Source: Escherichia coli (lineage in GTDB: Bacteria; Pseudomonadota; Gammaproteobacteria; Enterobacterales; Enterobacteriaceae). From it: 1,113 nt of DNA. Below, piece after piece: positions 1 to 1,113 of the stretch. The stretch lies in assembly GCF_003334255.1 (NCBI RefSeq), contig NZ_QOWU01000173.1; one strand, written 5' to 3'. Position 1 is the first letter of the stretch, and every line of letters begins with the position of its first letter. A program made the position numbers.

Positions 1-1113
1 TTGAAATACAGGTTAGTCAGATATGTCAGCAGCCCAAACAGCAGACTCCCCAGCACGCCTATTGCCGCCCACTGAGACGGGGAAACCCTGTCCAGCAACT
101 GCAGGAACCAGTAGCCCGTTCCCACCGCTGACGTGGTGTATGACACACCTGTTGTGATTTTTTCCATCTGGTACATACCCCGTCTCCCGTACTCGGAAGC
201 TCACAACAACAAAAGGGCCACCAGCTCTTTACTGATGGCCCTGCCCCGCCGTTACAGCATTGTGCCCGGTTCGGGTTGTGTGTCTGTCATATCCGTCACC
301 GGTGACTCCGGCTGAATATCACCATTTTCCGTGGTGACATCTTCCGCCTGTGGTTCCGGAAGCAGTTCCGGGGATGGTTCCGGCTGTGCACCAAGCAATT
401 CATCCAGAATTGAATCCACTTCTGCATCAAGACGCGCCTCAAGGTTCTGCCGAAGTTGCTGTTTCAGTGCGCTCCGGACTTCTTCAGAGCGCAGGACTTC
501 CTTCACTGCCTCAGCAGTGACCAGCGATTTTATTTCTGACATAGGATTTTCTCGTTGAAAGGGGTTATTAAGAAGGTTGTTCCGGAATGAGTGGGGCTTC
601 TGTTTTTGCTCCGGCTGACTGACTGGCGCTGATTTTCTCTGCGGCCCTTTTATCAATCTGCCTGCGCCAGAAATCGCGCACTGCCCTGTACCCACCCGAA
701 AGAAGATACAGCACACAGACCGCCGTACAGAAGTACAGCATCACCTGATGAACAAATGTCATAGTTTCTTACCGTTATGGTTGACAATGAGAACTGTTTT
801 CATTTAAAAACCGATATACGAAAGCATCTTTTCTTTACATTCTCCATTGGGATTACCTCCGCCAGCTTCCGTTCCTGCCGCTGGCGGCTTTTTTTGCCGG
901 TTATGATGATGCCCGGCTTTCGTTAACTTTGACTGTGACCGTATCAAGCAGTACCGGATACGTCGCTTTTGCCCCCGTGATATCTGTCAGCGTCAGCGTA
1001 TCTGCTGTAAAGCCATCATTTGTCCACATCACAAGGTCAAACGCCGTCTGCTCTGTACCATCAATCACCGGAACGACTCTTTCGCTGTTATTTCCCGCAA
1101 AGCGGAAAACAAC

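Follow-up and report, generated by a model that had tools for sequence, protein, structure and literature searches.

In a 1,113-nucleotide stretch of the Escherichia coli contig NZ_QOWU01000173.1 (NCBI RefSeq assembly GCF_003334255.1), which we refer to as the window, positions 781-895 of the plus strand probably constitute a gene for a regulatory RNA of about 80 nt, a diverged and unannotated paralogue of the small RNA (sRNA) Esr41 located in the late region of a lambdoid prophage. We assign this reading a probability of roughly 0.7. It is carried by the sequence features of the element, its homology to Esr41 over the whole unit, its position in a genomic slot that houses other sRNA genes, the conservation of its seed and its complementarity to mRNAs of proven Esr41 targets. 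The kind of element is already known, namely a prophage-borne sRNA of the Hfq type from the group of Esr41 and of the PasA/PasC slot; new is the unannotated member at this site. Esr41 (also named EcOnc14; Rfam RF02676) is an Hfq-dependent sRNA of enterohaemorrhagic E. coli (EHEC) O157:H7 encoded in the island SpLE1. Its length is given as 70 nt, and its 3′ GC palindrome and long poly(U) stretch have been reported to be essential for functional Hfq binding (PMC9387321).

The element is composed of the following parts, all on the plus strand:

781..786, plus strand: -35 hexamer TTGACA of the predicted sRNA promoter, read directly from the sequence
804..810, plus strand: weak -10-like A-tract, TTAAAA at 804-809 (17-nt spacer) or TAAAAA at 805-810 (18-nt spacer), read directly; its role as a -10 element is putative
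816..895, plus strand: predicted sRNA of ~80 nt, its 5′ end transferred from Esr41, give or take a few nt
818..824, plus strand: 5′ block ACGAAAG, conserved across alleles
840..847, plus strand: seed UUCUCCAU, an anti-Shine-Dalgarno sequence common to Esr41, conserved and unpaired in the centroid fold
859..887, plus strand: terminator hairpin with an 8-bp stem formed by CCGCCAGC (859-866) and GCTGGCGG (880-887; RNA arm GCUGGCGG) and a 13-nt loop, found by inverted-repeat and terminator scans
888..895, plus strand: C888 followed by T889-895 (U7), the point of termination and expected Hfq-binding 3′ end, read directly

A first-pass annotation of the window had pointed out the perfect TTGACA at 781..786 and the GC hairpin with its T7 run at 859..895, which it took to terminate transcription of the plus strand only, and all of these are present as described. 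The terminator scan lists the hairpin at 859-887 on the plus strand only, with an energy of -15.1 kcal/mol (z -3.16) that was equalled by 3 of 200 shuffles. In the sense of the minus strand, A7 comes before the stem and AGGUAAUCCC after it, so that the hairpin cannot serve as an intrinsic terminator in that direction. The annotation was also right that no good -10 hexamer follows the -35: a scan for sigma-70 consensus promoters called none anywhere in the window, the best candidates being the TTAAAA and TAAAAA listed above, which lie at a spacing of 17-18 nt from the perfect -35, where 16-18 nt are expected of a promoter. Taken alone, the TTGACA is not significant, with one occurrence seen against 0.92 expected and at least one in 117 of 200 shuffled sequences. 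These parts gain their meaning only by comparison with other sequences, and their significance comes solely from the comparative data. An open reading frame (ORF) of 49 aa on the plus strand (777-926) was considered as a gene and rejected, as indels of 1, 2 and 4 nt among the alleles break its frame.

When the window was compared to Rfam at a permissive threshold, Esr41 was the sole full-length match on the plus strand (821-895, model positions 1-74, 20.5 bits, E 0.35). The Rfam model picks out near-identical copies; the Esr41 gene of SpLE1 in strain Sakai (L005 in our collection of loci, 2048-2121) scores 108.6 bits with it. An allele bridging the two was found on a viral contig beside a DUF1378 gene (L289) and is intermediate, matching the Rfam model with 30.4 bits (E 0.012). 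Direct alignment of 781-895 with the promoter and RNA of Esr41 gives 75% identity over 104 columns and a score of 100, where shuffled sequences average 46.8 and do not exceed 65 (z 9.7). We further built a covariance model, R1, from 15 phage alleles with Esr41 left out, in which the terminator is the sole structure as it is the only fold common to the alleles. R1 matches the window at 815-895 with 105.8 bits and detects Esr41 in full length with 25.3 bits (E 1.7e-4 in 33 kb). The remaining permissive Rfam matches (PrrF, SAM-SAH, sR38 and Xist) were dismissed as chance, being partial or implausible with E values of 1.6-9, and a match to STnc470 at 208-242 spans nothing but a terminator hairpin.

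The homology runs from the TTGACA to the T-run and no further. The TTGACA hexamers of window and Esr41 align, and the spacers behind them are homologous (AACTGTTTTCATTTAAAA in the window and AACTATTTTTAATTATAT in Esr41, with AACT.TTTT in common). Both RNAs then share the pattern UUCUCCAU-GGG-AUU-CC-CCGCC(A/G)GC, the 3′ arm GCUGGCG and the ensuing U-run. The flanks of the Esr41 locus gave no match to the phage loci by either blastn or tblastx. Since the homology is thus confined to the section from the -35 to the T-run, the conserved unit is a cassette of promoter, RNA and terminator, as would be expected of an autonomous sRNA gene. In Esr41, the 5′ end as given by the Rfam model follows the TTGACA at a distance of 30 nt, and the same spacing in the window sets the predicted start near 816 and the length of the RNA at ~80 nt, close to that of Esr41 (70-80 nt for both). 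In Esr41 a single-stranded CU-rich seed, UUUUCUCCAU, acts at the ribosome-binding sites of targets, and the corresponding UUCUCCAU of the window is unpaired; likewise, the 3′ GC-rich palindrome and long poly(U) of Esr41 have their counterpart in the 8-bp stem, C and U7 of the window. The two RNAs differ in their 5′ third, which holds the ACGAAAG block in the window but a GAUGCU/GGCAUC hairpin in Esr41, and in their loops. They also differ in their surroundings: Esr41 adjoins iha and ter in SpLE1 (O-island 43/48, downstream of iha), whereas the window element lies in a lambdoid late operon and shares none of these flanks. A blastn search with Esr41 found no phage record.

The genomic position of the element points to the same type of gene. 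PasA (85 nt) and PasC (79 nt) of the enteropathogenic E. coli strain E2348/69 have been validated by northern blot, Hfq dependence and RNA interaction by ligation and sequencing (RIL-seq; PMC8550237). In E2348/69 they lie at 743499..743415 and 1290909..1290832, respectively, on the strand opposite the late genes and between a gene for a SASA esterase and the holin gene, an arrangement described as 'esterase-PasA-holin-lysozyme' by Zhu, Shabalina and Storz (preprint). Their EHEC homologues EcOnc51 and EcOnc52 are peaks of Hfq cross-linking and analysis of cDNA (CRAC) in the Sakai prophages Sp12 and Sp4. The window element occupies the same slot in the same orientation, antisense between a sialate-esterase gene and the genes for DUF1378, DUF826 and holin. 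It further shares with PasA and PasC the TTGACA 30 nt ahead of the 5′ end, the GCCAGC...GCUGGC core with U-run and the size (78-85 nt for these two). The bodies, in contrast, are only marginally alignable: global alignment gives z values of 5.5 and 4.5, above all shuffles, R1 scores PasC with 12.2 bits (E 0.25) and has no full-length match to PasA, and blastn yields terminator fragments only. PasA and PasC lack the UUCUCCAU seed and the complementarity to cirA, and their loci lack the DUF1378-DUF826 pair. The seed of PasA, GCCAGCACCU, has been placed on the terminator stem (Zhu et al.), where the window reads GCCAGCUUCC, while the conserved seed of the window is UUCUCCAU. Given bodies that can barely be aligned, we classify the RNA of the window as a body of the Esr41 type that occupies the PasA/PasC slot and not as an allele of PasA or PasC. 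The proposal of the first-pass annotation that a short RNA, antisense to the spacer of the late operon, is encoded on the plus strand between promoter and terminator thus gains support from both the homology to Esr41 and the slot shared with PasA, PasC and EcOnc51/52.

Other cassettes were encountered in this slot. Sakai Sp12 (L215, 1400-1700) carries two of them in tandem, each with a TTGACA and a GCCAGC...GCUGGC-U terminator; in Sp12 as well as in a locus of E2348/69 (L001), one of the pair is PasA-like and the other PasC/EcOnc52-like. Such a tandem arrangement would account for the minor PasA species of 236 nt by read-through to the second terminator. A different and unnamed cassette occupies the slot in three loci (L240, L241 and L242, at about 1330-1500, upstream of DUF1378) beside a DUF1378 gene that is 97% identical; it consists of TTGAAA-N17-TACAAA, an unrelated body and a terminator formed by GGCCAGCGCCGG...CCGGCGCUGGCU with a U-run, and it had no match in Rfam. 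At the positions equivalent to the -10 tract of the window, Esr41 has TATATA/TTATAT, PasA and PasC have CAGAAA preceded by TGT, the module of L240 has TACAAA and a further phage allele has TAGAAA. The layout TTGA(C/A)A-N17/18-TAnAAA recurs ahead of four different bodies, those of Esr41, PasA, PasC and the L240 module, which supports the assignment of a promoter but falls short of proof.

The element also resembles the anti-sRNAs AsxR and AgvB and the convergent sRNA pairs downstream of PR′ (Tree et al. 2014). All of these are short prophage RNAs that are encoded in the moron region against the direction of the late operon, have a promoter and a terminator to themselves and fall into families in which the 3′ part is conserved and the 5′ part varies. 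Those RNAs, however, reside in a different slot, bounded by stx2B and the esterase gene (AsxR of 933W lies at L004 6470-6522, ~2.1 kb from the element), have no sequence similarity to the window RNA and act as sponges of core sRNAs and not by anti-Shine-Dalgarno pairing. An RNA at the present site in 933W or Sp5 is described neither in the tables of Tree 2014 nor in Sy 2020, Waters 2017, a 2025 review or Zhu 2026, and a link of Esr41 to this slot was not found in the literature searched.

We then considered how the element is conserved among phages. An earlier scan of viral contigs had required TTCTCCAT and is unusable for judging conservation of the seed; most of its matches outside phages were chance and were filtered out. 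A seed-agnostic scan, anchored in the promoter region and the 3′ arm of the stem, collected 145 instances representing 51 distinct alleles. The seed UUCUCCAU is present in 144 of the 145 instances and its core UCUCCAU in all 145. Across the 51 alleles, seven of eight columns are invariant in the seed, five of seven in the ACGAAAG block, which lies outside the collection pattern, and six of eight in the 5′ arm of the stem. The corresponding figures elsewhere are 0 of 7 for the start zone 811-817, the most variable part, 2 of 11 for 848-858 and 3 of 13 for the loop. The -35 reads TTGACA or TTGACT in 51/51 alleles, with the caveat that GTTGAC formed part of the collection pattern. In an alignment of 39 distinct alleles, all 300 cells counted for the terminator stem are paired, while the loops vary in sequence and length; the hairpin that the first-pass annotation had singled out is hence kept in related phages. 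All alleles retain the T-run on the plus strand and none carries such a run on the minus strand. Beyond the terminator, no 5′ or middle hairpin is consistent across alleles, although in some of them the ACGAAAG block forms a 5′ hairpin with CUUUCG.

Two rarer alleles that were found via DUF1378 loci carry changed seeds, CCUCCAU and UCUCACCAU. One viral contig (L028, IMGVR_UViG_2703718810_000005, 4084-4197) holds a mosaic allele whose 5′ part and terminator are of the 933W type, while the segment close to the seed (CCUUGAUUCUCCAUGAAUCUCAC) is of the type seen in phage P13374, which suggests recombination inside the sRNA gene.

Esr41 is a repressor of cirA, chuA and bfr that acts through base pairing, which for chuA takes place at the ribosome-binding site (PMC5286369; PMC9002310), and Esr41 supplied in trans confers resistance to colicins Ia and Ib (PMC5286369; PMC9002310; PMC7873438). 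We thus compared the window RNA to these mRNAs. For cirA, UCUCCAU of the seed is complementary to AUGGAGA at -13..-7, spanning the Shine-Dalgarno sequence, and UACGAAAG of the 5′ block is complementary to CUUUCGUA at +17..+24. The energy of this duplex, -27.9 kcal/mol, was reached in 0 of 200 shuffles and is the best among 972 background windows of K-12 (22 kb). Even more stable cirA duplexes are obtained with the RNAs of 933W (-33.4 kcal/mol) and P13374 (-31.6 kcal/mol) and with Esr41 itself (-34.8 kcal/mol), while those of PasA (-16.5 kcal/mol) and PasC (-15.3 kcal/mol) do not stand out. The ribosome-binding site of chuA contains AUGGAGAAU, which matches the seed over 9 nt, and over 12 nt in the case of the P13374 allele, so that the window RNA and Esr41 are both complementary to the ribosome-binding sites of cirA and chuA. 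The pairings of the window RNA constitute predicted complementarity and are not evidence of regulation.

Taken together, the following sequence of events may be proposed. In a lysogen, the host sigma-70 RNA polymerase would start near 816 from the perfect -35 (781-786) and the weak A-rich -10 (804-810), and transcription would halt at the intrinsic terminator 859-895. The hairpin and its U7 tail would bind Hfq, and the single-stranded CU-rich seed (840-847) would pair with Shine-Dalgarno regions of host mRNAs and repress their translation, the best target candidates being cirA and chuA. The gene would be transcribed against the Q-dependent late operon and its product would be a trans-acting RNA of the Hfq type. 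For this allele, transcription, the 5′ end, binding of Hfq and regulation of targets are all steps that we infer from the sequence comparison.

Read along its minus strand, the window is a section of a lambdoid prophage that belongs to the late (lysis) region. It is 98.7% identical to Escherichia phage PhiR5_1, while 933W, VT2-Sakai and some 300 further Shiga toxin (Stx) phages are ~86% identical (85.9%) over 1-895. In PhiR5_1 and 933W, antiterminator Q is followed in turn by the moron region, an esterase-like gene of 662 aa, a pair of small genes and then holin S, R and Rz. The candidate RNA element sits in the 138-nt spacer between the stop of the esterase gene and the start of DUF1378. The following features lie on this strand:

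901..1113, minus strand: 3′ end of a NanS-p-like sialate esterase gene (last 70 codons 1113..904, stop TAA 903..901), from ORF reading; the fragment matches phrog_143 and phrog_3591
800..860, minus strand: GGAGG (860..856) and a tiny ORF, here ORF-a (847..800, ATG 847..845), read directly
759..803, minus strand: 14-codon upstream ORF (MKTVLIVNHNGKKL*), its stop and the DUF1378 start overlapping in ATGA, from allele comparison
568..762, minus strand: DUF1378, a 64-aa single-pass membrane protein (ATG 762..760; Pfam DUF1378 5e-35; phrog_494, unknown function)
252..542, minus strand: DUF826, a 96-aa acidic protein, matched in Pfam and PHROGs only as DUF826 / unknown function
167..165, minus strand: start of holin S, by PHROGs match

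The full 662-aa esterase of PhiR5_1 contains DUF1737, SASA and DUF6645 domains, which makes it NanS-p-like. The DUF1378 gene is located within the Q-dependent late operon, by the holin gene. The GGAGG and tiny ORF opposite the RNA had been pointed out in the first-pass annotation and are present; the GGAGG with an ATG eight bases downstream is the reverse complement of the CCUCC...CAU anti-Shine-Dalgarno stretch of the sRNA. The peptide of ORF-a is MENVKKRCFRISVFK in the window, MEKK in 933W-type alleles and 14-25 aa elsewhere (4 to 25 codons overall), so that ORF-a is not conserved as a coding sequence. The 14-codon ORF retains its length and ATGA overlap in 33 of 35 allele contexts, with synonymous and non-synonymous changes mixed, and may couple its translation to that of DUF1378; its start codon is lost (ACG) in phage 1720a-02. 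Solely in the allele subclass of the window are ORF-a, the 14-codon ORF and DUF1378 chained by ATGA overlaps or direct abutment, whereas in 933W-type alleles ORF-a comprises 4 codons and ends 30-32 nt ahead of the next ORF.

A number of observations weigh against an sRNA gene of the Esr41 type. The -10 candidate lacks the usual T at the last position, matches the consensus in 3-4 of 6 positions and fails the consensus scan, and the promoter region is partly constrained by the opposite strand, where the complement of the -35 hexamer encodes the I-V-N codons of the 14-codon ORF. The Rfam score remains far under the gathering threshold of 102 bits. No covariation was detected in the terminator by RNAalifold or by counting of pairs, as the stem is nearly invariant; MAFFT misplaces the register of the short-loop alleles, and the eighth stem pair, as judged by eye only, is C-G, U.G or U-A depending on the allele. 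Between phage classes the element is ~82-83% identical and thus no more conserved than the adjoining coding DNA, which is why our argument rests on the pattern of conservation and not on its level. Among the targets, the duplex with chuA is undistinctive in energy (rank 266 of 1088 in the background), as is that with bfr compared to shuffles and background. The latter is undistinctive even for Esr41 itself, indicating that the duplex-energy test is insensitive, and the support from chuA is limited to the seed match. The 5′ end of PasA may come from processing (Zhu et al.), a further weak point. For Sakai Sp5, the esterase-S junction is not among the Hfq peaks listed in table S2 of Tree et al.; this is a weak negative, since multi-copy sequences may have dropped out there. 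Finally, expression of the window allele as well as of the common 933W-type allele is a deduction from sequence.

Several of these points would equally be expected if there were no RNA gene at all and the hairpin were either a structure of the late mRNA that stabilises the 3′ end of the esterase cistron or is a site of processing, or a barrier that halts stray antisense transcription in one direction, with the TTGACA arising by chance or as a by-product of coding. The lack of a consensus -10, the chance expectation of a lone TTGACA and its coding role in a maintained small ORF, and the missing Sp5 peak are all in line with such an explanation, and the hairpin also folds on the minus strand with -17.2 kcal/mol. 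What it leaves unexplained is the homology to a proven free-standing sRNA gene that extends exactly from the -35 to the T-run, the invariant Esr41 seed and the retention of the T-run on the plus strand only. Furthermore, TTGA(C/A)A is found at the same spacing where the small ORF is absent, as at the Esr41 locus, in PasA and PasC and in the L240 module. The alternative put forward in the first-pass annotation, that the hairpin simply blocks convergent transcription or stabilises the mRNA, may hold for the hairpin but does not account for the conserved -35 and seed; overall we regard the lack of an RNA gene as improbable.

Given the position of the element, its RNA might alternatively be a cis-antisense regulator of the fully complementary late transcript, tuning the expression of DUF1378, DUF826 and holin or the timing of lysis. 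It could do so by blocking the loading of ribosomes at the GGAGG of ORF-a or at the 14-codon ORF, or through cleavage by RNase III; in the opposite sense, the late transcript might sequester the sRNA once the prophage is induced, and a cis role could coexist with one in trans. As the RNA is encoded opposite the late transcript, the two are necessarily fully complementary, and only 13 nt separate the predicted 5′ end (~816) from the start codon of the 14-codon ORF (803..801), which is within the footprint of a ribosome. Moreover, every module of the slot, including those with unrelated bodies (PasA, PasC/EcOnc52 and the L240 type), is antisense directly after the esterase stop, conserved convergent arrangements of sRNAs downstream of PR′ have been noted by Tree et al., and PasA forms RIL-seq chimeras with the 3′ region of neighbouring esterase mRNAs. 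Against this stands Esr41, which has the same promoter, seed and terminator, sits in SpLE1 without an opposing late operon and acts in trans. An RNA acting solely in cis also has no need of an invariant 8-nt seed while its remainder drifts, such sRNAs are detected in lysogens, in which the late operon is not expressed, and ORF-a is not conserved. We hence consider a cis-antisense function unlikely as an explanation of the element.

The first-pass annotation had, in addition, drawn a parallel to type I toxin-antitoxin systems of the hok/sok kind, in which DUF1378 would be a membrane toxin whose translation is coupled to the mini-ORFs in the style of hok-mok and blocked by the antisense RNA. The likeness consists in a small membrane protein, with 64 aa and one hydrophobic helix in the case of DUF1378, whose leader is faced by a short antisense RNA that has a separate promoter and terminator, and, in the allele of the window only, in overlapping mini-ORFs that could couple translation: two ATGA overlaps chain ORF-a, the 14-codon ORF and DUF1378, and the RNA covers the GGAGG and the start of ORF-a. 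In addition, all 78 DUF1378 loci with enough upstream flank have some antisense module with a terminator. This co-occurrence carries little weight and does not discriminate between the hypotheses, the sample being composed of close relatives only (DUF1378 87-100% identical). The differences are more substantial. A gap of 53 nt lies between the predicted RNA (816-895) and the DUF1378 start codon (762..760), so that the RNA misses the start region of the putative toxin, the chain of ORFs is limited to one allele subclass, and the leader ORF is unconserved. The RNA family exists without the protein, as no DUF1378 homologue is present at the loci of Esr41, PasA, PasC and EcOnc51/52. DUF1378 was matched by none of the NCBIfam toxin models (Hok, Ldr, Ibs, TisB and others) and is of unknown function in PHROGs, so that profile searches do not support its membership in a toxin family; its gene sits as an internal cistron within the late lysis region of a phage, and a promoter of its own would be hypothetical. 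The toxin-antitoxin proposal is hence unsupported, and we judge it to be highly improbable.

Further observations concern the make-up of the late region. The similarity of 933W-type phages to the window ends at 895, the last T of the terminator, and this residue marks a mosaic joint (895/896) between late regions of the PhiR type and the 933W type, at which esterase genes with differing 3′ ends are joined to one and the same cassette. Records of PhiR phages annotate the DUF826 protein as 'head completion protein', an annotation that looks wrong according to Pfam and PHROGs, and in 933W the DUF1378 and DUF826 genes are fused into a single annotated ORF, L0106. Between DUF826 and holin S, the minus strand carries another intrinsic terminator at 214-242, composed of a 12-bp stem (-22 kcal/mol, z -3.6) followed by UUUUGUU. 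It lies inside the late operon, where polymerase modified by Q would need to read through it, and it may insulate the lysis genes in lysogens. A similar hairpin with U-run is found on the sense strand upstream of the holin gene, or of an insertion sequence (IS) element, in E2348/69 (L001 1334-1363; L002 1345-1374).

Among 5426 complete E. coli genomes, 967 (18%) contain the Esr41-type element, in 2149 places, with a median of 2 and up to 7 per genome. It is thus often present in multiple copies, unlike Esr41 proper, which is a single-copy gene in 695 genomes. A 100% match is present in strain G1/2 (NZ_CP060083.1, 2951957-2952087). The element also occurs in 306 phage records, 933W and Sp5 included, and is annotated in none of the genome and phage matches listed. 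These data can be joined with those on the slot in a broader picture, which as a whole we offer as tentative and rather doubtful: the esterase-holin junction of lambdoid phages, including Stx phages, would be a site at which sRNA cassettes are swapped, the Esr41-type cassette being a factor of lysogenic conversion. The cassettes may share adaptor ends, namely the TTGA(C/A)A promoter and the GCCAGC...GCUGGC-U terminator, and differ in their seeds. The Esr41-type cassette may shut down CirA and ChuA, redundantly with Esr41, and the outcome may be resistance to colicins Ia and Ib and a rewired uptake of iron and haem. After induction, the antisense late transcript may neutralise the sRNA or may be regulated by it, and a regulator directed at the host may thereby be coupled to the decision for lysis.

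While an element of this kind is in itself unsurprising, it ties Esr41, which has so far been treated as an sRNA of the SpLE1 island, to the lambdoid PasA/PasC slot as its likely origin. Surveys of prophage sRNAs that rely on BLAST or on the Rfam threshold miss such elements, given that blastn retrieved no phage record and that 20.5 bits compare to a threshold of 102. If the element is expressed, classical Stx phages (933W and Sakai Sp5) and many non-Stx lambdoid prophages carry an unannotated Esr41 paralogue, often in several copies, and the effect of single esr41 deletions in EHEC may be masked by the copies in prophages. Carriage of such prophages could then change the sensitivity to colicins Ia and Ib and the uptake of haem or siderophores via cirA and chuA. 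The relevance of the finding hence lies in the iron, haem and colicin biology of EHEC and in the reading of esr41 mutants.

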